From positions 412,040 to 476,039 of the forward strand of contig OY760427.1 in NCBI GenBank assembly GCA_963663495.1: a stretch of 64,000 bases of DNA. Reading direction: 5' to 3'. This DNA comes from Rhodothermales bacterium. Lineage in GTDB: Bacteria; Bacteroidota; Rhodothermia; Rhodothermales; Bin80. Shown one piece after another: positions 1,358 through 62,217 of the stretch. Position 1 is the stretch's first letter, and each line of letters opens with the position of its first letter. Below the pieces are notes generated by a model that worked only from the letters and a program-made list of their open reading frames with translations, was not told where the DNA came from and made no database searches. A program made the translations under genes and the position numbers.

Positions 1358-3220
1358 AGACCCCCAAACGCTCCACCTTGCACCCGCTCTTGAGCACGCG
1401 GAAGAAGTCTTCCACCCGCCACCGCTTGAGATACATGGCCAACACCCGCCGTGCATCCGCTACGCTCCCTACCTCCATGCTGGTCAATAGCATCCACTCC
1501 ACCGGCGGCGCATCCCCCGGAGGCTCCACCTCCAACACATGCACCCCGTACATCACCACCGGCTCCTCCTCGTTCTTCGGATCCGGCAACAAGAACCTCC
1601 CGTAGCGTACCTCCGCATTGACCATCCGGTAACTGCGACCCTTCCGTGCCTGCTTGCGCGCCTGCTTCTTGCGCGCCGTCACCCGATTTATCTCTATCGC
1701 TACATTCCCCGGAGCCTCACCACTGCGCATTACCGCAAACAGCTTGCGATCATCCAACAGCTTGCGATCATGCTTCGCTCGTATCAATACCTCCGCCTTA
1801 CCCTGTCTACGCTGCTCGGCAAACATCGCAAAGCTGTCCGCCTCCCGGTCCGCAACACAGATCACCTGCGTCTCGCCGGACAGCTCCGCCGCCGCCTCGC
1901 ATATATCCTTGAACCCGTCTATCCACTGCTGCGTCCGCGGAACATGCGGACCCTCCTCCGGATCCTTGAAGCTGCCACGCAACACCCCCAACGTCAATCC
2001 ATCCTCCGTCACCGCCAGCGTCGCATGCAACGGCAACCCCAGCGTCTTCGCCGTCGTCTGATTACTCCCTGTTACCTCCAAATCCGTACACGCCGGCCGC
2101 GTACTGTACCGCAACTTCGTCGTGTCCTGGATGCATAACACGGTCTCCTGACTACGCATACGCTCTATCGTACGCCCACGATGCGGCGCCAATATGTTCT
2201 CCGGCGTTACCGTTTTGTCCTTCTTGCTCTCCAATAACCGGTAATGCCCCTTCACCGCCGCGCGGTCCGCATCCGTATGCGCGGTAATGCTGTGGACTAT
2301 CACATCGGCCAACATGGACGTGCTCTTTACCAGTCGCACAGACAACCGCCTGTCTCCCAATGGCGCTCCGCCAAACTCCGTTTCGGCCCACTGCGCACTG
2401 TCAATCCCCTCGTGCGGATCCCTCACCGGACGCAACTCCTCCTCCGGTTCCCCCAGGGTTCCGCGCCATTCTTTGTCCAACTCGTATACATACAGCCCCT
2501 TGGGATCCTTTTCCTTTGCCTCCTTGTGCCGCTTTCCGCCTGCGGTATGGCCGATCAATACAAAATTGTTCACCTCAAAACACGTTCCTTCCCCTTGGGG
2601 ATCCACATACGTTTCGACAACCCAGGGACGGTAACGGTACCGTGCCTGAAAATCATCCGCCAACCGTCTCAACACCTTACCCAGTACATGGCTGGCCAAA
2701 TCCTGACACTGCCCCCGTATCAGAAAACGACTCAAACACACCACACGGTGCAAATGCGCCTTGCGCTGCTCATCACTCCACGCCATCCAGTGCTCCCTGG
2801 GCGCCAGGCACAACGCCGCCGCCGAAAATCCCACCGCTCCCAGGTAACCATGGGCACTGCCTATCAGATAGCGTACCTGCGCTCCCACAAATGTGGTCGT
2901 ACGCCTCGGATGCTCAAAGTGCAGCAACGTGTTCCACACCACACGCTGCTCGTCCGTCTCAACCAACTCAATCGTCAACCCCCGGACACCGTGTACCGTG
3001 TCCGGTAACGCTATCGGATCCGGTACCCGCTCCTCGCGCCTACGCGGTTCCGCCTTAGCCGCATTACAATTCTCGGGCTTGGGCAACACCATCCTCCCCC
3101 GGGCCTCCAACTTCGATAAAGCCTGCGCACAGTTGCTCACCTGCAGTTCGCCCCGTGCATCAACAAACCCGAACTCTTCGCAGACAGCGCGCGCTATCTG
3201 CGTGCGATACCGCCAACGAT
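1358..3220 (-). pseudogene. IS4-family transposase fragment (DUF4338 N-terminal domain + Tn5-like DDE domain), cut at both ends by other IS
   Basis: About 95% identical to 12650-14512 of the intact 769-aa gene. Its 3' side is cut by the IS256-like end at 1357 and its 5' side by the IS66 end at 3221. Confidence 0.85.
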
Positions 3221-3520
3221 GTATCCGTACGGTAAAGTACATGGTAAAGCGGGCTTAGCATTGGTCTGCGTAGTCCGCTTGTAGAGCTTAGTGCAAGGTG
3301 ATTATACGCCGGGTTTGGTGTGCCGATATGGGAATTTCGGAGTGGTGTGCAGCTTATCGTCCAGGCGCCTGAATGCAGGCAGCAATCAGCGTCTTTTGGG
3401 ACAAAAAACATGGGTTTTGGGGAGAAGAACCGGAACATTGTGGAGGACGCACATGCACATGAACTATGCGGTCCAAGGCATCTTTCTCCCCCTCTTCTCC
3501 TGCCGGTGAAGTCCTTTTTC

Positions 3521-3592
3521 AGAGGCTAAGAAACCAAGAGGCTAAGAAACCAAGAGGCTAAGAAACCAAGAGGCTAAGAAACCAAGAGGCTG
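3521..3592 (+). repeat. 16-bp tandem repeat AGAGGCTAAGAAACCA, 4 full units plus a partial one
   Basis: Read directly. IS66 copy 2 has a single unit at the homologous position (about 21240-21260). Confidence 0.9.
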
Positions 3593-3624
3593 AGAACAAG
3601 GATCTGCGAAAACAGGTCCGTCGC

Positions 3625-5190: not shown

Positions 5191-5332
5191 GAGCCCCTAA
5201 ACAGGCGCGCCCGGTCATCCGATAGATCCGTGTACGGGTCTGCGAATACGCTGTCAGGTACTTGACTCCTGCACACCCAACCGACGCTAGCCTATAAACC
5301 TTCGAACCGCGCTCTAACTTACTCTAATTGAG

Positions 5333-5503
5333 GGGAATTATATGGCTGAGTACCCATCTGCTGAGGTTTTCGAATTAATTGCAGTTTTTTCGCGAAAAGC
5401 GGGAACTGATTATGAAAAACTGGCGCAAGCCATCCTGACCGCACCACCACAGCGCAATAATAACGGGTGCCAAAACGCGTGGGTACTCAGCTATATAATT
5501 CCC
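5333..5503. mobile_element. 171-bp MITE with near-perfect 24-bp terminal inverted repeats, inserted into the right arm of IS66 copy 1
   Basis: GGGAATTATATGGCTGAGTACCCA ... TGGGTACTCAGCTATATAATTCCC. Flanked by the direct repeat TAATTGAG (5325-5332 and 5504-5511). The uninterrupted site with a single TAATTGAG is seen in IS66 copy 2 (about 19545-19560, complement). Confidence 0.85.
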
Positions 5504-5555
5504 TAATTGAGAGAGTAAATACCCTCGGTTATAATGTACTTCACCGGACGGATAC

Positions 5556-46172: not shown

Positions 46173-46449
46173 TCAAAGAAACCCAACTCTCCGCGCGGCG
46201 ATCGCTTCCAGATCGGACTTATCACATTCTTGGATCACAATCACTCGCCACCCGATTTGGTGGAAGGCTTCCCCATTCCGCAGGTCTTGGACGACATTGC
46301 CATTGAACTAGTTCTTGTAGAACTGAAGGTCATGTAGTGTTTCTCGTTGAATTCGGGACGTGGAGTAGCTTTCGCATCCTGTAACCTGCCGATGCTAGCG
46401 GCAATACGGTTGGCAAGATTAGGGGGCTAACTCTTGTTGGGTTTCCATA
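46173..46449 (-). pseudogene. vsr: Decayed very-short-patch repair endonuclease (vsr) remnant, frameshifted and split by the 46450-49798 insertion
   Basis: C-terminal frame NGNVVQDLRNGEAFHQIGWRVIVIQECDKSDLEAIAARRVGFL resembles the Vsr ...N.ERD......L...GWRVL.VWEC tail. An upstream frame gives ATPRPEFNEKH (compare PATRTEFWLEKI). Confidence 0.45.
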
Positions 46450-46910
46450 GGGAGTTATATGGCTGAGTGCCACGCGTTTTCGCAGGCGTTACTTTTTGTG
46501 CTTTGGTGGTGCAGACAGGATGGCTTTCGCCAGTTCTTCCAATGTGGTAGGGATGGATTGTTGGATATTGAGAATGTCGTTTGTCACGGGGCGGCCGGGG
46601 CGTTTCGTTTCCTGAATCTTGTTACCGGGCTTCGGGGATTTATCTATGCGCATGGCGTTATAAGCTATAGAGTAGCACTAATCCATTGGGGCAGAATACC
46701 GAAATGATTGCATGGCGGACATCTGCTTAGAGCATGTAGGAGGCTGCATATCCAGTTTTCACGACAGTCGATCAATTTCAGGACCGATTCCTTGGCTTAT
46801 ATCGGGATGCTCTTGACAATGCGGAAGTACTGGGCGGACCCCGGTACGGGCCACGAAGCGCACCGGACGAACCCATGAGACGCGGGCCATCAAGCACAGA
46901 CATGGAAAAG

Positions 46911-47093
46911 CTAGCACATAACGGCCTTGACCACCGGAATGGGTACGGCGTTGCCAGTAAGCCGTCTGACAGTCGTTATCGGACTGTCAATCTCGTAGCT
47001 GTCGGGGAAGCCTTGCAGGCGCAGTATTGCGCGGCCCGTTAGTCTCCGTCCACGAGCAAGCAGTTGTAGCTGGCCGATGCCCGGAGTGCGCAT
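46911..47093 (-). pseudogene. C-terminal fragment of a second C5 DNA methyltransferase
   Basis: RLTGRAILRLQGFPDSYEI...RLTGNAVPIPVV matches the motif IX-X region of C5-MTases. No N-terminal part present. Confidence 0.6.
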
Positions 47094-47131
47094 GAGTACG
47101 GATGGCTTGATACGTTGCCGCTTACGTCTGG

Positions 47132-48088
47132 CTATGAAATGAGGGATTTGTACATGAGCCGTTTACCGACCAGTCCTTGAGCAATTATTGCCATTTGCTC
47201 CGCTGTGTCGAAGTCGCGTGCATTGTGTCGCCCTGCAAATTCGTTCACGTACCGCTGTAGGTGTTTCTTGCTCATGTGGTGGTACGTTCCGTAGTACCCA
47301 CGCTTCAGCAATGACCAGAAGCTCTCTACGCCATTGGTGTGGACCTGCTCACGAACGTATTCGCCAACAGAGTGACGTACGTAGGCGTAGTTGTTGCGGC
47401 CCCGGTATGTTGACGAACCATCCGTATAGACCTCGGTGTCTTCCGAGACATGGGTATCCACAAACGCATTGAGCGTCTGTCCGTCTGTGTTTTCTACTAC
47501 TTGGGCAGAAATACTATTGGTGACACGATCACGGACTCCTACAACGGCTTTCTTACCTACTGGCCCACGGCCTGCATTCAGCTTCTTACTGGCGTGCCTG
47601 TTCTTTTCCTTACCACCGAAGTAGGCTTCGTCAACCTCTACCGGACCGGCAAATAGTGCATGCTCTCCATTCCATGATTATCGAATACGGTGGGACAGAT
47701 GCCACGCTGTAGTCTGGGTTATGCTAAGGTCACGATGCAGCTTCATGCTGGATACGCCCTTGATACTGGTAGTCATGATGTAAATGGCTAATGCCCATAC
47801 CTGGTATCCCAGTTTCGAGTCCTGCATTACTGTTCCTATGCGGATACTGAATCGTTTACCGCAACTACGGCAACGATAAGGCATGCTAGGATGCTTGGCG
47901 CCGCACTGTACGTTGTTAGACGCACAGTGCGGGCAAACAGGAGTGTCGCCCCAACGCTTCATTGCGAACCATGCTTCGGCTGATGGGTCGTCTGGAAACA
48001 TTTTGGTTAGCTTGATCAAGGACACTCCTTCACGATCAGCCCGTCCAGGGCCATTGGTGTTTCTGTTGTTTCTTTTCTTTGAAGGCAT
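47132..48088 (-). pseudogene. IS1595-family transposase with a single in-frame TAA (47678-47680)
   Basis: N-terminal zinc ribbon CPHCASNNVQC...CRSCGKRFS. C-terminal DDE_Tnp_IS1595-type HTNGVESFWSLLKRGYYGTYHHMSKKHLQRYVNEFAGRHN. ORFs 47678-48088 and 47132-47461 are in the same frame and the stretch between them is open. Confidence 0.8.
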
Positions 48089-48341
48089 CTAGTGGGTCAT
48101 CAATCTATCACGGGATGGTGCCCATTTTCGGCATAATCGGTTCCCGCTTTACGCGACCACACTGCAATTATTTCAACAATTTAACGCGCGGGCACTCAAC
48201 TGTATAACTACCATAGGTATCACTCACAGTACGGGAGCTCGCCCATCCGGCTACGACAACACACCGTGTCAAGCGCCGTGGTGGCACAAGACCGTGTGAG
48301 CACACGAATTGTTTTGGAGGACTTACGTCAAGGTTACATTT

Positions 48342-48512
48342 GGGAGTTATATGGCTGAGTGCCACGCGTTTTCGCAGGAGTTACTTTTTGTACTTTGGTG
48401 GTGCAGACAGGATGGCTTTCGCCAGTTTCTCATAATCGGTTCCCGCTTTTCACGACAAACTGCAATTATTTCAAATAACTCAACACGTGGGTATTCATGC
48501 TATATAATTGCC
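48342..48512 (+). mobile_element. 171-bp MITE of the same family as 5333-5503, placed 8 bp upstream of the tnpB unit
   Basis: GGGAGTTATATGGCTGAGTGCCACGCG ... CACGTGGGTATTCATGCTATATAATTGCC. Its right half matches the IS1595 5' arm at 48130-48212. Confidence 0.8.
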
Positions 48513-48542
48513 ATATATCAGGGAGTTATATACCACAGTGCC

Positions 48543-49793
48543 ATGCCCGAAACGGTTAGTGCATACCGCAATATTACATACAGGCTGTTGCCCGGAAGTC
48601 GGAGTAACGCCAAGCACCTTGCTGGATTAGCGGGTGCGTGTAGGTTTGTGTGGAATGCCATCCTCGCAGAGCAGAGCGAGGCGTACAAGAAAGCGAAAGA
48701 GGCTGGAGAGAAGCCGCCCTCGGTAAGCTTCTTCTCGCTGGGGAAGCGGTTCACGGCGCTGCGCCGCACGGTCGAGTGGCTACCTGAATACTCCTTTGGT
48801 GTCGTTAGATACACATTGAAATATCAGGCGGATGCATGGAAGGCATTCTTCAAGGAGGGTAAGAGAAGACCGAGATTCCATTCTAGACGTGGTAGTACGC
48901 CTTCGTTCACGATCCTGGATAACGTAAGGGTTCGGGATGGCAAGCTGTATATCCCGAAAGTGGGATATATGGCACTCCGCAGGCGGGGAGGCAACCCGTA
49001 CCCTGATGGTATACCCGTCAAAGCCACGGTAAAGAAGAACGCCGGCAAAGGGTATGCTATCATCTGCTACAAGATGGAGGCACCTGTAATAGAGGATACC
49101 GGCGGTGCTGTAGGCATTGACCGTAATTGCGGGCAGGTCGCTATGGTCTCCACAGAGGGCGATACAAGCATTATCAGACAACCGGATACCAAGCGTCTTG
49201 ATGCCAAGTTGAAGCGGCATCAGCGAAGACTGGCGAGACAGAAGAAAGGCTCCAACCGTCGTAACAGGCGGAAGCATAGCATCGCCCGCATACAGCGCAA
49301 GCGTGCTAACGTCCTCAAGAATGCGAACCACCAGGTAAGTCGCAGTATTGCCAATTGCTCCTCAACGGTGATACTGGAGGACCTGAAGATCAAAGCGATG
49401 ACACGTTCAGCTAAGGGGACGATGGAGAGCTTTGGCACAAACGTCAGACTGAAGTCTGGCCTCAACCGTGGGATACTGCGAACAGGTTGGGGCCAGCTGG
49501 ATCAGATGCTGGGCTATAAGTGCCGCAAGGTGATAAAGGTTACCGCTGCCTATACGAGTCAGCGGTGTTCTGTGTGTGGGCACACAGAAGCGAGTACCCG
49601 TAAGACACGGAGCAAATTCACGTGTATGTCCTGTGGACATGCGGATCATGCAGACCTGAATGCGGCTGCAAACATACTGGCCTCCGGGATTGGGGCTTCT
49701 GCACGGCGAGGGGCGTTCGGGTTACTGACCCCTATGACCCGTGAAATTGATACTAGTGCCTCACTGTGTACAGTTGGTCACTCACGTATATAA
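48543..49793 (+). CDS. tnpB: TnpB (OrfB_IS605-type RNA-guided endonuclease family), 416 aa
   Basis: RuvC-like GIDRNCG, ILEDLKIK, HADLNAAANI. Zn finger CSVCGH...CMSCGH. ATG 48543: the track ORF start at 48309 reads through the MITE. Confidence 0.9.
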   Translation: MPETVSAYRNITYRLLPGSRSNAKHLAGLAGACRFVWNAILAEQSEAYKKAKEAGEKPPSVSFFSLGKRFTALRRTVEWLPEYSFGVVRYTLKYQADAWKAFFKEGKRRPRFHSRRGSTPSFTILDNVRVRDGKLYIPKVGYMALRRRGGNPYPDGIPVKATVKKNAGKGYAIICYKMEAPVIEDTGGAVGIDRNCGQVAMVSTEGDTSIIRQPDTKRLDAKLKRHQRRLARQKKGSNRRNRRKHSIARIQRKRANVLKNANHQVSRSIANCSSTVILEDLKIKAMTRSAKGTMESFGTNVRLKSGLNRGILRTGWGQLDQMLGYKCRKVIKVTAAYTSQRCSVCGHTEASTRKTRSKFTCMSCGHADHADLNAAANILASGIGASARRGAFGLLTPMTREIDTSASLCTVGHSRI

Positions 49794-49931
49794 TTCCCTT
49801 TCCATAACAGCGCGCACGCAAAGCAGGGTCGAACATGCTGCCCCAAAACATCCACACAAAGTTCCAGAAAATGCAGCGCAGCCTTCCCACATGATGGAGG
49901 ACGAATCGTCTCCCACCTCGGGTCCGGTCTG

Positions 49932-57171: not shown

Positions 57172-60100
57172 ATGAAAAGGGTGACATTGTGGCATATGGT
57201 GGCATTCGCACTGCTTTTGCAGGCAGCTCCAGATGTGGCTGCGCAGACCTATGATACGACGTTTTTTCAGGCACTTTCGTACCGGAGTGTTGGCCCGCTT
57301 CGTGGCGGACGCTCTGCAGCCGTCACTGGTGTGCCCGGTGAGCCGCGGCTTGCATACTTTGGTGCAACCGGCGGCGGCGTGTGGGTCTCGCGCACTCGGG
57401 GAGATAGCTGGGAGAATATATCTGACGGATTCTTCGGGGGCTCTATCGGCGCGGTCGCGGTAAGCACATGGGATCCGAACGTGATGTATGTAGGTGGCGG
57501 CGAGAAGACCGTCCGTGGCAATGTGTCGCACGGCTACGGGATGTTCAAGTCCATGGATGCCGGCAAGACATGGGAATCCATCGGATTGGAAGACTCGCGG
57601 CGCATTCCACGTATTCGGATCCATCCGCGCAACCCTGACCTAGTCTATGTGGCAGTGCTGGGGCATCTGTTCGGGCCTAATGAGGAACGAGGAATTTATC
57701 GCACCAAAGACGGGGGGACCACATGGGAGAAGGTGCTGCATGTGAGCGACCAGGTCGGGTTTGTGGACCTAGCAATGGACCCTTCCAATTCGCGCGTCAT
57801 GTATGCCAGCGCCTGGCGGGTTCTGCGGACCCCTTACAGCCTGGAAAGTGGAGGGGAAGGGTCCGGTATCTGGAAGACGATGGATGGCGGGGATACATGG
57901 CATGAGGTGACAGGGCGCGACAACGGGCTACCACAAGGTACGCTGGGAATTAGCGGCGTTACGATTTCTCCCGTGAATTCGCAGCGTGTCTGGGCCATTA
58001 TTGAGGCGGAAGATGGTGGGGTGTTTCGCTCGGACGATGGCGGCGCCATGTGGCGGAGGGTATCCGATGACCGTAATCTGCGGCAGCGGGCCTGGTACTA
58101 CACGCGCATCTATGCAGATGTGGCGAACGAGGACATGGTGTATGTGCTCAATGTGCAATTCTGGCGCTCCAAGGACGGCGGAAGAACATACGAGAGCATA
58201 TCTACGCCTCACGGCGATCATCATGATTTGTGGATTGATCCAGATGACGCCAGTCATCTGATCATAGCGGATGACGGGGGCGCACAGGTCAGTTTTGACG
58301 CCGGACAAACGTGGTCTACCTACTATAACCAGCCAACATCGCAATTCTACCGTGTTACCACCGATAATCATTTTCCTTATCGCATCTTGGGCGCGCAGCA
58401 GGACAATTCTACAGTGCGGATACTGCACACGTCCAGCGGAATCAATGAGCGTAACTGGGAGCCTACTGCGGGAGGAGAGAGCGGTTGGCTTGCCCCTCAT
58501 CCTGATAATCCGGATATCGTTTATGGTGGTTCGTATGGCGGGTACTTAACGCGTGTGGACCACACAATGGGGCAGGTACGCAATGTCAATGTGTATCCAG
58601 ACAATCCAATGGGGTACGGTGCGGAGGGAATGAAGTATCGTTTTCAGTGGAACTTTCCCATTCTCTTTTCCCAGCACAACCCGAATGTGCTATATACGGC
58701 AGGTAACCACCTCTTCCGGTCTACCACTGAAGGGGAGTCGTGGGAAATGATGAGCCCTGACCTGACACGCGCCGACACGTCCAAGCTCGGCTCAAGCGGA
58801 GGTCCCATTACGAAGGACAATACGGGTGTGGAGTATTACGCCACGATTTTTTCCGTTGCGGAGAGTGCACACAACCCTGACGTCATGTGGGTTGGTTCGG
58901 ACGACGGATTGGTGCATGTTACGCAGGATAGGGGTGCTTCGTGGACGGATGTGACACCGGACGGATTGCCGGAGTGGACTCAGATCAATGAGTTGGTGGG
59001 GCATCCCATTGAGCCCGGCGGTGCCTACCTGGCGGGCACGCGTTACAAGATGGACGATTTTAGCCCGTACCTGTACCGGACCACAGATTTTGGAGCGACC
59101 TGGACTAAGATCACGGAGGGAATTGCTGCGGATCATTTTACGCGGTCCATTCAGCCTGATCCGGTAAGGGATGGACTCTTGTGGGCCGGGACAGAGTCCG
59201 GGATGTATATATCCTTTAACGACGGGGAACAGTGGACGACATTTCAGCGCAACCTGCCAGTGGTTCCGATCACGGATCTGGAGCGCAAGGACGACGACTT
59301 GGTCATTGCGACGCAAGGGCGGTCGTTTTGGGTGATGGAGGATGTAACGCCGCTACATCAGCTTGATAACAACGTAGTCGCGTCCGCCATGTGGTTGTTT
59401 ACGCCCGCACCTGTGCACGCAATCGGAGGCTCTACCGTGCCGCTGCGCTACTACCTGCAGGATGAAGCAGACTCGGCCGCGGTAGCCATTCGCATCCTTG
59501 AAAGCGATGGTAGCGTCATCCGCAGCTACACGGCGGGGGATGATGACCTGGGGATTACGGCAGGCATGCATACGTTTAATTGGAACATGCGCTACGAGGA
59601 TGCCGAATCGTTTGAAGGGCTCATCATGTGGGCAGGGAGTGTCCGGGGGCCGCGAGCCGCCCCCGGAGCCTACCAGGCGCGGCTCGTGGTAGGTGAAGAC
59701 TCCATGGACATTGGTTTTGAGGTGCGTATGGATCCTCGGAGCACTTCTACGATGGAAGATGTGCAGGCTCAGTTTGACTTTCTCCTAGGCATACGGGACA
59801 AACTGTCCGAGACGCATGTCGCTATCCGTCGCATCCGGTCTGTGCGTAGCCAGATAAAGGATGCGGTAGGGCGCCTGCAGGAGGGCGAGCAAGAAGGTAT
59901 TCGATCAGATGCGAAGGTACTAACGGATAGTTTGACAACCATTGAGGAAGCGTTGTATCAGACAAAGAACAGAAGCAGGCAAGATCCGCTGAACTTCCCC
60001 ATCCGACTTGGCAATAAACTCGCTAGTCTGGCAAGTGCCGTATCCACAGGTAACTATCGGCCAACCAACCAGGCGATGGATGTGCGCAAGGATCTCACCG

Positions 60101-60222
60101 AGCGCATTGATGCCGAGTTAGCCCGGCTTGAGGGACTGCTTAGAGAGGCTGTTCCCGCGCTTAATCAAGCCATGCTGGAGGCGCGTGTTCCTGCGGTGGT
60201 GGCACCGGATGAGGACATGTAG
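57172..60222 (+). CDS. Secreted BNR/Asp-box repeat (sortilin/VPS10-like) beta-propeller protein
   Basis: Signal-peptide-like N-terminus (MKRVTLWHMVAFALLLQAAPDVAAQ). Repeated S-x-D-x-G-x-T-W Asp-boxes (SMDAGKTWE, TKDGGTTWE, SDDGGAMWR, SKDGGRTYE, TQDRGASWT, TTDFGATWT). Confidence 0.75.
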   Translation: MKRVTLWHMVAFALLLQAAPDVAAQTYDTTFFQALSYRSVGPLRGGRSAAVTGVPGEPRLAYFGATGGGVWVSRTRGDSWENISDGFFGGSIGAVAVSTWDPNVMYVGGGEKTVRGNVSHGYGMFKSMDAGKTWESIGLEDSRRIPRIRIHPRNPDLVYVAVLGHLFGPNEERGIYRTKDGGTTWEKVLHVSDQVGFVDLAMDPSNSRVMYASAWRVLRTPYSLESGGEGSGIWKTMDGGDTWHEVTGRDNGLPQGTLGISGVTISPVNSQRVWAIIEAEDGGVFRSDDGGAMWRRVSDDRNLRQRAWYYTRIYADVANEDMVYVLNVQFWRSKDGGRTYESISTPHGDHHDLWIDPDDASHLIIADDGGAQVSFDAGQTWSTYYNQPTSQFYRVTTDNHFPYRILGAQQDNSTVRILHTSSGINERNWEPTAGGESGWLAPHPDNPDIVYGGSYGGYLTRVDHTMGQVRNVNVYPDNPMGYGAEGMKYRFQWNFPILFSQHNPNVLYTAGNHLFRSTTEGESWEMMSPDLTRADTSKLGSSGGPITKDNTGVEYYATIFSVAESAHNPDVMWVGSDDGLVHVTQDRGASWTDVTPDGLPEWTQINELVGHPIEPGGAYLAGTRYKMDDFSPYLYRTTDFGATWTKITEGIAADHFTRSIQPDPVRDGLLWAGTESGMYISFNDGEQWTTFQRNLPVVPITDLERKDDDLVIATQGRSFWVMEDVTPLHQLDNNVVASAMWLFTPAPVHAIGGSTVPLRYYLQDEADSAAVAIRILESDGSVIRSYTAGDDDLGITAGMHTFNWNMRYEDAESFEGLIMWAGSVRGPRAAPGAYQARLVVGEDSMDIGFEVRMDPRSTSTMEDVQAQFDFLLGIRDKLSETHVAIRRIRSVRSQIKDAVGRLQEGEQEGIRSDAKVLTDSLTTIEEALYQTKNRSRQDPLNFPIRLGNKLASLASAVSTGNYRPTNQAMDVRKDLTERIDAELARLEGLLREAVPALNQAMLEARVPAVVAPDEDM

Positions 60223-60379
60223 GGAGGCGCGGCATTGAGCGATGCAGTAAGGTGTGGTTATGTGGTGCCTCGGCGTTGCTCCGCATGTGAAGCAGGAATG
60301 CTGCCTCAGCATGTTTGCGGTAGCTGGCATGAGCCATGGTTTGGCCGTCAGAACACCCCGCTTTGGCGGGATTATTATT

Positions 60380-61836
60380 GGGAATTATTTACGTGAGTGA
60401 CCAACTGTACACAGTGAGGCACTAGTATCAATTTCACGGGTCATAGGGGTCGGTAACCCGAACGCCCCTCGCCGTGCAGCAGCCCCAATCCCGGAGGCCA
60501 GTATGTTTGCAGCCGCATTCAGGTCTGCATGATCCGCATGTCCACAGGACATACACGTGAATTTGCTTCGTGTCTTACGATTACTCGCTTCTGTGTGCCC
60601 ACACACAGAACACCGCTGGCTGGTATAGGCAGCGGTAACCTTTATCACCTTGCGGCACTTATAGCTCAGCATCTGATCCAGCTGGCCCCAACCTGTTCGC
60701 AGTATCCCACGGTTGAGGCCAGACTTCTGTCTGACGTTTGTGCCAAAGCTCTCCATCGTCCCCTTAGCTGAACGTGTCATCGCTTTGATCTTCAGGTCCT
60801 CCAGTATCACCGTTGAGGAGCAATGGGCAATACTGCGACTTGCCTGATGGTTCGCATTCTTGAGGATGTCAGCACGCTTGCGCTGTATGCGGGCGATTCT
60901 ATGCTTCCGCCTGTTACGACGGTTGGAGCCTTTCTTCTGTCTCGCCAGTCTTCGCTGATGCCGCTTCAACGTGGCATCAAGACGCTTGGTATCCGGTTGT
61001 CTGATAATGCTTGTATCGCCCTCTGTGGAGACCATAGCGACCTGCCCGCAATTACGGTAAATGCCTACAGCACCACCGGTATCCTCTATTACAGGTGCCT
61101 CCATCTTGTAGCAGATGACAGCATACCCTTTGCCGGCGTTCTTCTTTACCGTGGTTTTGACGGGTATACCATCAGGGTACGGGTTGCCTCCCCGCCTGCG
61201 GAGCGCCATATATCCCACTTTCGGGATATACAGCTTGCCATCCCGAACCCTTACGTTATCCGGGATCGTGAAGGAAGGCGTACTACCACGTCTGGAATGG
61301 AATCTCGGTCTTCTCTTACCCTCCTTGAAGAATGCCTTGCATGCATCCGCTTGATATTTCAATGTGTATCTAACGACACCAAAGGAGTATTCAGGTAGCC
61401 ACTCGACCGTACGGCGCAGTGCCGTGAACCGCTTTCCCAGCGAGAAGAAGCTTACCGAGGGCGGCTTCTCTCCAGCCTCTTTCGCTTTCTTATAGGCCTC
61501 GCTCTGCTCTGCGAGGATGGCATTCCACACAAACCTACACGCACCCGCTAATCCTGCGAGGTGCTTGGCGTTACTCCGACTTCCGGGCAACAGCCTGTAT
61601 GTGATATTGCGGTATGCACTAACCGTTTCGGGCATGGCACTGTGGTATATAACTCCCTAATAGATGGAAATTATACAGCATGAATACCCATGTGTTGAGT
61701 TATTTGAAATAATTGCAGTTTTTTCGTGAAAAGCGGGAACCGATTATGAAAAACTGGCGAAAGCCATCCTGTCTGCACCACCTAAGCACAAAAAGTAACT
61801 CCTGCGAAAACGCGTGCACTCAGCCATATAACTCCC
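60380..61836 (-). mobile_element. MITE + tnpB composite element, copy 2, with 8-bp target-site duplication
   Basis: Ends GGGAATTATTTACGTGAGTG (60380) and the complement of GGGAGTTATATGGCTGAGTG (61836). TTATTATT at 60372-60379 and 61837-61844. Internal layout: tnpB unit 60380-61657, 8-bp spacer, MITE 61666-61836. Confidence 0.8.
60385..61635 (-). CDS. tnpB: TnpB, 416 aa, copy 2
   Basis: About 96% identical to 48543-49793 with the same catalytic and zinc-finger motifs. Confidence 0.9.
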   Translation of the reverse strand: MPETVSAYRNITYRLLPGSRSNAKHLAGLAGACRFVWNAILAEQSEAYKKAKEAGEKPPSVSFFSLGKRFTALRRTVEWLPEYSFGVVRYTLKYQADACKAFFKEGKRRPRFHSRRGSTPSFTIPDNVRVRDGKLYIPKVGYMALRRRGGNPYPDGIPVKTTVKKNAGKGYAVICYKMEAPVIEDTGGAVGIYRNCGQVAMVSTEGDTSIIRQPDTKRLDATLKRHQRRLARQKKGSNRRNRRKHRIARIQRKRADILKNANHQASRSIAHCSSTVILEDLKIKAMTRSAKGTMESFGTNVRQKSGLNRGILRTGWGQLDQMLSYKCRKVIKVTAAYTSQRCSVCGHTEASNRKTRSKFTCMSCGHADHADLNAAANILASGIGAAARRGAFGLPTPMTREIDTSASLCTVGHSRK

Positions 61837-61918
61837 TTATTATTCCAGCATGCTTAACGAGCCAGCCGTTTTAATTGTGTATCTTCAGGATCTAAGAAAA
61901 ATGGGGGAGGTACTTATT

Positions 61919-62217
61919 GCGGACGTGGCGAAATCGGTAGACGCAGCAGACTTTAATTGGAGTGCCCGCGCGGAAACGCGCGGTGTAGAACCGCTCAACT
62001 TCGGGGAAAGCTCTGGCACTTCTTGCCGTGCCAATCCCGAGCCAAGCCCGGCCTTGCCGGGAAGGTGTAGAGACTAGACGGGCGGCACCTACGGCCTGAT
62101 GGCTACGGTGAAGGGATAGTCCAGACCACGAACGCCAGATGGCGGCGGCGAAAGCCGAAGTGGTACGAAAATCTGCTTCTCGAAATGGGAGTGCGGGTTC
62201 GAGTCCCGCCGTCCGCA
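61919..62217 (+). tRNA. tRNA-Leu (anticodon UAA) interrupted by a 214-nt intron in the anticodon loop
   Basis: 5' exon GCGGACGTGGCGAAATCGGTAGACGCAGCAGACTT (61919-61953). 3' exon AAAATCTGCTTCTCGAAATGGGAGTGCGGGTTCGAGTCCCGCCGTCCGCA (62168-62217). Joined they give an 85-nt class II tRNA with loop CUUAAAA. Confidence 0.8.
61954..62167 (+). ncRNA. Group I intron (tRNA-Leu UAA / IC3-like)
   Basis: Inserted between U34 and A35. Ends in G (..GGTACG). The internal guide GGAGT can pair with exon ACUUU. Core blocks CCAATCCCGAGCCAAGCC, GGAAGGTGTAGAGACTAGACGGGCGGCACC and GGGATAGTCCAG closely resemble the cyanobacterial tRNA-Leu intron core as I remember it. Confidence 0.75.

Follow-up and report, generated by a model that had tools for sequence, protein, structure and literature searches.

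The 64-kb window analyzed here (the whole stretch of 64,000 nucleotides from contig OY760427.1 of a Rhodothermales bacterium) contains a 1457-bp unit with a tnpB gene at 60380-61836, to which we refer as copy B. Our analysis indicates that this unit is probably a non-autonomous transposon of the IS1595 family that carries a TnpB RNA-guided nuclease together with its guide RNA, with a one-sided G in the flank as the target-adjacent motif (TAM) and with retention by re-cutting. We are highly confident in the architecture and in the movement in trans, and the proposal that the one-sided G, at position -1, would be the TAM of these TnpBs is about an even call, made from the pattern of the flanks. 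This G at -1 is what is new here.

Architecture of the tnpB element

Copy B begins GGGAATTATTTACGTGAGTG and terminates in the complement of GGGAGTTATATGGCTGAGTG, and it is bracketed by a perfect 8-bp duplication, TTATTATT, at 60372-60379 and 61837-61844. It consists of a tnpB unit with inverted repeats of its own, an 8-bp spacer and a miniature inverted-repeat transposable element (MITE):

60372-60379, no strand: duplication TTATTATT, the copy adjoining the tnpB 3' end (minus-strand reading AATAATAA)
60380-61657, minus strand: tnpB unit of copy B, 1278 bp, with its own inverted repeats
60385-61635, minus strand: tnpB open reading frame (ORF) of copy B, 416 aa, canonical domain set, D193Y
60380-60504, minus strand: predicted omega-RNA scaffold of copy B, last ~125 nt, overlapping the tnpB 3' end and the right repeat (the homologous region of copy A, described below, is in the alignment)
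61658-61665, no strand: 8-bp spacer, ATCTATTA when read in tnpB orientation, separating tnpB unit and MITE
61666-61836, no strand: 171-bp MITE, both arms matching the IS1595 element of the window
61837-61844, no strand: duplication TTATTATT, second copy
61845, minus strand: G at -1 (C on the plus strand), directly before the left duplication when read in tnpB orientation, a candidate for the final base of the TAM

The repeats of the tnpB unit lie at 60380-60399 (the right end in tnpB orientation) and 61638-61657 (the left end), and only 5 nt separate the stop codon from the element end. The outer repeat of the MITE acts as the left end of the 1457-bp composite, and the spacer is probably a shared target site because its length equals one duplication. 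The MITE arms match both arms of the IS1595-family element at 46450-48212 (94% over 96 nt in alignment D1; also alignments D8 and D11), and judged by these alignments the MITE is a deletion derivative of that element. The duplication copy at 60372-60379 would supply the first 8 nt of the predicted copy-B guide.

The first-pass annotation of this DNA had described the layout of tnpB unit, spacer and MITE with inverted ends and a perfect duplication, a stop codon 5 nt from the element end, the match of the MITE to the IS1595 arms and a second MITE-spacer-tnpB copy at 48342-49798. Every one of these statements was confirmed, the match by alignment of both arms and the second copy (copy A) at 97% identity over 1342 nt. 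Four features presented below went unnoticed in that annotation: the lack of a separate duplication around copy A, the D193Y change of copy B, the in-frame stop in the transposase gene of the window and a solo MITE.

Relatives share their ends with autonomous IS1595 elements

A scan of species-representative genomes yielded 80 loci with TnpBs 43-79% identical, hosted by Rhodothermales, Paracoccaceae, Arenicellales, Gammaproteobacteria and other metagenome-assembled genomes (MAGs). All intact relatives have tnpB as the only gene, are 1.27-1.48 kb long and end in GGG(G/A)(A/C)TTATAT... inverted repeats, a build that is kept down to 45% protein identity. Further copies in related genomes had been called for by the first-pass annotation, and they carry the shared inverted repeats together with 8-bp duplications that are perfect in 29 of the 50 elements with detectable repeats and match at seven of eight positions in eight more, each sequence being different. 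Three further duplications were recovered on removal of a group II intron and another three came from a later validation set.

Autonomous IS1595 elements, reached via transposase homologues, are ~1.9-3.2 kb long, carry methyltransferase or other passengers, are flanked by 8-bp duplications and have repeats near-identical to those of the tnpB elements. Several repeat sub-lineages are common to both kinds of element:

L169-L172: GGGAATTATATACGTGAGTAACCC (left), ..ACATGAGT.. (right), with a left/right asymmetry as in the Rhodothermales tnpB elements
L099, L104, L110: GGGAyyTATATACTTAACTAGCCA, matching tnpB element L047
L127, L128: GGGAATTATATACTTGACTCCC, matching tnpB elements L049 and L055
L081: GGGRATTACATACCTGAGTRCCC, resembling the Rhodothermales repeat at ~20/23 positions
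L073: an IS1595 element and a tnpB element side by side, with common terminal GGGAATTATAT

These shared sub-lineages are strong evidence that IS1595 transposases act in trans on the tnpB elements. The features of the IS1595 family that we looked for, namely repeats starting with GG, 8-bp duplications and ends shared with elements encoding the Zn_ribbon_IS1595 and DDE_Tnp_IS1595 domains, are all present. Chance similarity of the repeats to the IS1595 arms, a concern raised in the first-pass annotation, can be ruled out, since a degenerate inverted-repeat pattern has 10 matches in the window compared with 0.16 expected from shuffles (all ten being element ends) and since near-identical repeats occur on the autonomous elements.

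The presumed transposase donors are also present in the source genome. The analysis covered protein clusters P0135, P0144, P0186, P0001 and P0002 of the 5.9-Mb Rhodothermales source contig, which encodes a protein 100% identical to the aconitase of the window. One 90%-identity cluster there holds 212 distinct TnpB members, and further TnpB clusters hold 19 and 28. The transposase cluster P0001 has 20 members on the same contig, many of them full-length at 318 aa; altogether the contig encodes ~20 full-length and 21 truncated IS1595 transposase variants, and the non-autonomous tnpB element outnumbers its presumed donor by about 10:1. The ends, the duplications, the shared repeats and the intact transposase paralogues thus support the earlier proposal of a non-autonomous IS1595-type element that has tnpB as its cargo and is mobilized in trans.

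Copy B might instead be taken for an ordinary element of the IS200/IS605 group (IS1341 type) moved by a Y1 TnpA transposase, with inverted ends and repeats that arose by coincidence. Its protein is a standard TnpB, and the nearest solved structure is ISDra2 TnpB, with an alignment that covers the full length. However, IS605-type elements have no inverted repeats, make no duplication and depend on a Y1 HUH transposase acting on single-stranded DNA (PMC13565253), and the elements described here show both inverted repeats and 8-bp duplications. The excess of repeat matches in the window, dozens of independent perfect duplications and repeats common to IS1595 transposase elements all go against such an origin; in addition, the NCBIfam model IS200_TnpB scores 183 bits, under its cut-off of 425, and no Y1 transposase was seen adjoining any copy. 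The data refute this explanation, to which we give practically no chance of being right.

Two kinds of side observation concern these insertions. Firstly, some duplication sequences occur more than once: unrelated autonomous IS1595 insertions (L085, L142 at both ends; L097, L098 at the left end) have the palindromic 8-mer TTTGCAAA, and tnpB elements from two different MAGs (L009 and L016) have AAACTAAT, which suggests preferred target words. Secondly, some tnpB elements have group II introns within their inverted repeats. An intron matching RF01999 and RF00029, present in Rhodothermales MAGs (L003 5223-~7132; L004 and L010 at the same position), sits 6 nt from the right end (TATATA-intron-ATTCCC) in the tnpB/omega-RNA sense, and it would separate scaffold from guide until splicing. 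A Paracoccaceae MAG has an intron of another class (RF02005), which lies on the opposite strand directly beside the left repeat and has an identical position in at least seven copies (L017, L018, L020, L024, L025, L034, L063). It appears that the repeat serves the introns as a homing site.

A one-sided G next to the insertions

All elements were oriented by tnpB, position -1 being the base just 5' of the left duplication, and the flanks and duplications had the following composition:

Position -1: G in 37/39 tnpB elements, 1.66 bits
Position -2: G or C in 31/39 tnpB elements
Position +1 after the right duplication copy (the mirror position, C expected): C in 13/39, unbiased
Duplication positions 1-3: A-biased; overall A/T A/T A/T N N A/T A/T not-C

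With two more tnpB elements, G at -1 was found in 39/41, compared with 4/23 (3/23 when mirrored) in a tnpB-less set made up of 21 autonomous IS1595 insertions and two solo MITEs (Fisher p = 1.8e-10). The comparison of left G with mirror C within the same elements was similarly clear (p = 1.3e-9). Those elements in which a group II intron interrupts the right end added 3/3, and insertions fetched after the hypothesis was formed another 3/3, bringing the total to 45 of 47 tnpB elements. The composites of the window fit this pattern as well, with GGG before TTTCCATA and CTGG before AATAATAA in tnpB orientation and with left ends that come from an insertion sequence (IS) or a MITE; so does an old left junction preserved in the filler described below (GG before TTACATTT).

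Two other sources of the G were tried and rejected. A 9-bp duplication or a shifted boundary does not account for it, since the right junction is always CCC plus the 8-mer, the first base of the 8-mer is G in 0/39 and the base following the right copy shows no bias. Nor is it tied to a GGGG left end, as the Rhodothermales elements start with GGGA yet have the G.

Another possibility is that, with the same architecture, the polar G reflects a target preference of the moving transposases or of a host factor at the left end, the insertion motif then being unrelated to TnpB. In this regard, the left and right repeats differ systematically (ACGTG vs ACATG; GGGG vs GGGA), which makes an asymmetric transpososome conceivable; four of the 23 controls, L081 among them, do have G at -1; most of the controls are from different hosts; and a TAM with a single conserved base would be short. 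However, C is found at -1 in two autonomous insertions, L169 and L170, whose repeats are near-identical to those of tnpB elements and show their left/right asymmetry, and the two solo MITEs show no G in either orientation. Furthermore, the G stays when a MITE or an IS supplies the left end, as in copies A and B of the window, indicating that it tracks the presence and orientation of tnpB and not a particular left repeat, and it holds across repeat sub-lineages and phyla. On balance we consider a preference of the transposition machinery an unlikely source of the G.

The TnpB protein is conserved

The TnpB of these elements has the complete domain set (HTH/WED-REC, split RuvC and zinc finger), with Pfam matches to OrfB_IS605, Cas12f1-like_TNB and HTH_OrfB_IS605 and with 236 bits against the NCBIfam model guided_TnpB (NF040570; cut-off 100). 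The D-E-D triad (GxDxN / xxxE / D-x-NAA) is kept in copy A, in 15 diverse intact relatives and in 8/8 full-length paralogues examined from the source genome, and the zinc-finger cysteines are conserved in the same 15 relatives. Copy B is an exception: it reads GIYRN where copy A and the eight full-length paralogues have GIDRN, and because this D193Y change affects the catalytic Asp of RuvC-I the flagged copy is probably nuclease-dead. Between copies A and B, 35 of 1251 nt are different; 17 of the codon changes are synonymous and 17 non-synonymous, and the ratio of non-synonymous to synonymous change corrected for sites (pN/pS) is 0.30, pointing to a TnpB lineage under purifying selection. In almost every intact copy, 5-29 nt separate the stop codon from the element end. 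Truncated copies are common in Paracoccaceae and make up about half of the listed source-genome paralogues, as is usual for expanded insertion sequences. In the plasmid collection searched, the closest TnpB was 35% identical and no close relative was annotated.

A predicted omega RNA that ends at the element boundary

An alignment of 20 diverse 3' ends, each comprising the final ~125 nt of its element, was the basis on which we specified a structure of five helices. In this structure 94% of cells are paired and compensatory changes occur at 15/24 pairs; the covariation score of 0.293 compares with a shuffle mean of 0.101 (0/500 shuffles reach 0.293) and with at most 0.112 for slid controls. 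The fold includes a pseudoknot in which the loop GGGAYU, provided by Ser-Gly-Ile/Thr-Gly codons, pairs with the terminal ARUCCC, that is, the tip of the right repeat. Both partners change together: GGGACU with AGUCCC, GGGGUU with AAGCCCC and GGGAUU with AAAUCCC (L008). A similar pairing of the terminal tip with an upstream loop forms the pseudoknot of known TnpB RNAs, and the omega RNAs of IS200/IS605 elements likewise continue up to the final base of the element. Accordingly, we read the structured RNA as a putative omega-RNA scaffold. As the covariation-supported fold extends to the last base of the element, within the right repeat, the predicted guide would start with the duplication. The overlap of the scaffold with the 3' coding end and its extension to the element end had been anticipated in the first-pass annotation, and it is covariation that supports them.

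Protein and RNA together bear on the possibility that tnpB is inert cargo, a decaying IS605/IS1341-type gene trapped between IS1595-type ends and devoid of a working guide RNA or nuclease. The D193Y change in the flagged copy, the many truncated copies in Paracoccaceae and in the source genome, and the lack of a match in Rfam would agree with decay. Against this stand a build that persists across phyla down to 45% protein identity, with ORFs and triad both intact (the triad also in all eight of the full-length paralogues examined), the pN/pS value, a stop codon held close to the element end, and compensatory changes that preserve an RNA fold within the coding region. We regard inert cargo as very improbable.

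Proposed mechanism of retention

In the mechanism that we propose, an IS1595 DDE transposase supplied in trans would move the tnpB element, and the omega RNA would read through the right repeat, with a guide composed of the 8-bp duplication and the right flank. The guide would match, and thereby target, a site that is empty or from which the element was excised precisely, with one 8-mer between the left and the right flank. At such an emptied site the base 5' of the guide match would be the flank G, which would hence form the 3' end of the TAM, and a TAM located just 5' of the left-flank duplication would explain the polar G at -1. The element itself would escape cutting: at the occupied right junction the preceding base is the C of the repeat tip, and at the left junction the guide match would be only 8 nt. 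Cutting of emptied sites would then force recombinational re-copying, a process proposed for IS605 elements. Insertions next to a G would persist and leave copies, the others being lost or continuing to move, and G at -1 would become enriched. Retention of G-adjacent insertions would also fit the presence of more than 200 copies in the source genome. In essence, RNA-guided re-cutting would have been transplanted from single-strand IS605 transposition to double-strand DDE cut-and-paste with a variable 8-bp duplication, a step that we advance tentatively and rate at a little under an even chance.

Several points weigh against this proposal. It rests on sequence, and copy B, which lacks the catalytic Asp, would itself be unable to carry out the cutting step. 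Strong conservation is restricted to one flank position, -2 being G or C in 31/39, and characterized TnpB TAMs usually have 4-5 nt. The control set is small (23), and most of it comes from other hosts, with transposases 37-65% identical to that of the window. As for the RNA, about half of the sequences (the AAUUCCC group) have U-U at the fifth pseudoknot pair. The scan of the 3' end with omega-RNA covariance models that the first-pass annotation had suggested was made with Rfam on both copies at a permissive E-value and no omega-RNA family matched, and the single-sequence fold of the copy-A 3' end is no stabler than shuffles (z = 0.12), so that covariation is what the RNA prediction stands on. 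Lastly, in IS607 and in eukaryotic inverted-repeat transposons bases of the flank or the duplication are reported to lie within the RNA scaffold (Yoon et al. 2023, PMC10711439). The same situation here would shift both guide and TAM, and it would leave the G at -1 unexplained.

Nested elements in the window and neighboring genes

The window holds a further instance of the same composite. Copy A (48342-49798) has the layout of copy B and no duplication of its own, its two sides being TTACATTT and TTTCCATA. Instead, TTTCCATA at 46442-46449 and 49799-49806 brackets a 3349-bp block (46450-49798) that contains an IS1595 element, a 129-bp filler, the MITE and tnpB. The parts are listed here, followed by a solo MITE located elsewhere in the window:

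46442-46449, no strand: duplication TTTCCATA, left copy, preceded by G at 46441
46450-48212, minus strand: IS1595-family element, inverted repeats 46450-46469 and 48193-48212
47132-48088, minus strand: transposase gene of the IS1595 element, with a single in-frame TAA at 47678-47680
46911-47093, minus strand: C-terminal remnant of a C5-methylase (60 aa) in the IS1595 element
46489-46653, minus strand: conserved 54-aa ORF in the IS1595 element, with a homologue in L081
48213-48341, no strand: 129-bp filler between the IS and the MITE-tnpB composite, ending in GG before TTACATTT
48342-48512, no strand: 171-bp MITE of copy A, with a promoter-like match at 48480-48508 facing tnpB
48513-48520, no strand: 8-bp spacer of copy A, ATATATCA
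48521-49798, plus strand: tnpB unit of copy A, 1278 bp, ORF 48543-49793, intact D-E-D triad
~49674-49798, plus strand: predicted omega-RNA scaffold of copy A, from the covariation alignment
49799-49806, no strand: duplication TTTCCATA, right copy, first 8 nt of the predicted copy-A guide
49799-49818, plus strand: predicted copy-A guide, TTTCCATAACAGCGCGCACG
5325-5511, no strand: solo 171-bp MITE (5333-5503) with duplication TAATTGAG, no G at -1 in either orientation

The inner junctions of the block hold unrelated 8-mers (ATAGGTAT and TTACATTT), as is expected of a block that was moved by means of the outermost repeats and carried along part of an earlier site; the filler end looks like the left half of the older insertion site of the composite. 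From these junctions, the block is evidently a compound transposon, in which elements with compatible ends share one duplication around the outermost ends. The nesting is that of a 1278-bp tnpB unit in a 1457-bp composite in a 3349-bp compound element, and the duplication goes with the outermost pair of repeats used. Copy B, the compound element and the solo MITE thus represent three independent 8-bp duplication events in the window for this repeat family. The IS1595 transposase of the window has both Zn_ribbon_IS1595 and DDE_Tnp_IS1595 domains (NF033547, 180 bits) and, by its interrupted reading frame, is a pseudogene.

Additional features of the IS1595 elements were noted. The small ORF at 46489-46653, in the transposase-distal arm, ends in ...LAKAIL(S/R)(A/S)PP..KK*, has an AT-hook-like PGRP motif and is 49% identical (E 3e-10) to a 43-aa ORF of L081 (5451-5582) at the same position as in the window IS; the MITEs retain only its 3' end (61737-61787 and 5400-5450). 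Autonomous elements of the window's subgroup have DNA methyltransferase genes as passengers. In L081 (3457-4488) there are a C5 methylase and a 319-aa ORF, in L169-L172 (L169 5272-6735) an N6_N4 methylase fused to HNH, and in L073 (~1960-3600) a methylase with a DPPF motif.

Every repeat tip contains an outward-facing TATAAT. Sigma-70-like matches (10/12), scored against a consensus that may differ from the promoters of this phylum, are found at 48480-48508 (plus strand) in the inner end of the MITE, directed toward tnpB, and at 49767-49794 (plus strand) in the right repeat of the tnpB unit, directed toward the flank. Possibly the MITE donates a promoter to tnpB, which would explain the retention of the MITE-8 bp-tnpB arrangement.

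With respect to its neighbors, copy B sits in the T-tract of a likely intrinsic terminator (CCCCGCTTTGGCGGG then ATTATTATT; 60340-60379) that belongs to a 1016-aa Sortilin/BNR-repeat gene (57172-60222). About 75 bp downstream of copy B there is a tRNA-Leu(UAA) gene (61920-62217) that is split between U34 and A35 by a group I intron (RF00028, 47.1 bits, E 1e-10, at 61944-62144, slightly under the gathering score). ARAGORN makes no call of this split gene. The intron position is the classic cyanobacterial/plastid one, here in a Rhodothermales genome.

Relation to known systems and significance

The first-pass annotation had left open whether TnpB elements with such ends were already cataloged. 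The kind has been, since the article text of Altae-Tran et al. (2023, PNAS, PMC10691335) describes six DDE-associated TnpB branches (DDE-1 to DDE-6), all with inverted terminal repeats, as well as solo TnpBs that have the ends of transposase-bearing elements and were inferred to move in trans. As DDE partner families, the article text of PMC10691335 names IS630 and a 2026 review (PMC13565253) lists ISL2, IS630 and IS1031; in the literature searched, IS1595 is not named as a TnpB partner and no functional TnpB-IS1595 link is reported. The kind is therefore already known, and IS1595 as partner family is a new member. The elements reported here resemble the DDE-1 to DDE-6 branches in having tnpB within inverted repeats, a 3' end near (<250 bp) the transposon end and solo copies. 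They differ in that the transposase is never co-encoded, except in the compound element of the window with its pseudogene, and in their variable 8-mer duplication; the polar G and the repeat-tip pseudoknot are not described in the article text on those branches.

IS200/IS605 and IS1341-group elements such as ISDra2 have the same protein family, domain order and D-E-D triad. Their RNA scaffold, as is predicted here, overlaps the 3' part of tnpB and extends no further than the transposon boundary, and a conserved motif in the left flank adjoins the part of the emptied site to which the guide would correspond. A homing model for TnpB is reportedly due to Meers et al. in 2023. In contrast to those elements, the ones studied here have inverted repeats and an 8-bp duplication that would make up the first 8 guide bases and that sets the candidate TAM off from the left end.

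The IS1595 family is characterized by repeats starting with GG, 8-bp duplications and a zinc-finger DDE transposase (Siguier et al. 2009, as summarized in PMC8101967). The tnpB elements share these repeats and duplications, the Zn_ribbon_IS1595/DDE_Tnp_IS1595 partner and the presence of passenger genes in autonomous relatives, and they differ from the family and its MITEs in their cargo, an RNA-guided nuclease with a predicted guide RNA in a unit without transposase, and from tnpB-less relatives in the polar G. Among eukaryotes and their viruses, Fanzor/Fanzor2* (Bao & Jurka 2013, PMC3627910; Yoon et al. 2023, PMC10711439) are also TnpB-family nucleases in inverted-repeat, duplication-making transposons whose guide RNA reads across the repeat into the flank, as predicted here. 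Their duplications are mostly short and fixed (TA, TTAA) and are reported to be absorbed into the RNA scaffold, whereas our elements have bacterial hosts, a variable 8-mer duplication and a canonical compact TnpB.

According to the 2026 review (PMC13565253), the association of OMEGA nucleases with DDE transposons is rare in prokaryotes, and a cut-and-paste element gains little from a homing nuclease because its excision already leaves a break. This view is at odds with the tnpB-IS1595 lineage, which has reached hundreds of copies in a single genome and has relatives in several phyla. If the proposed mechanism is true, the duplication would be the TAM-proximal part of the guide and the repeat tip would double as an RNA pseudoknot, and the system would operate as a ratchet in which only G-adjacent insertions leave a copy behind on moving. 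A ratchet of this kind would account for the rise of a 1.3-kb non-autonomous element to more than 200 copies, ~10x its transposase donor, and for its spread across phyla. In addition, the one-sided G located 8 bp from the left end offers a sequence-level handle on these elements that gives a concrete prediction of TAM, guide and target, and the family may supply compact (~400-aa) nucleases with a G-ending TAM.

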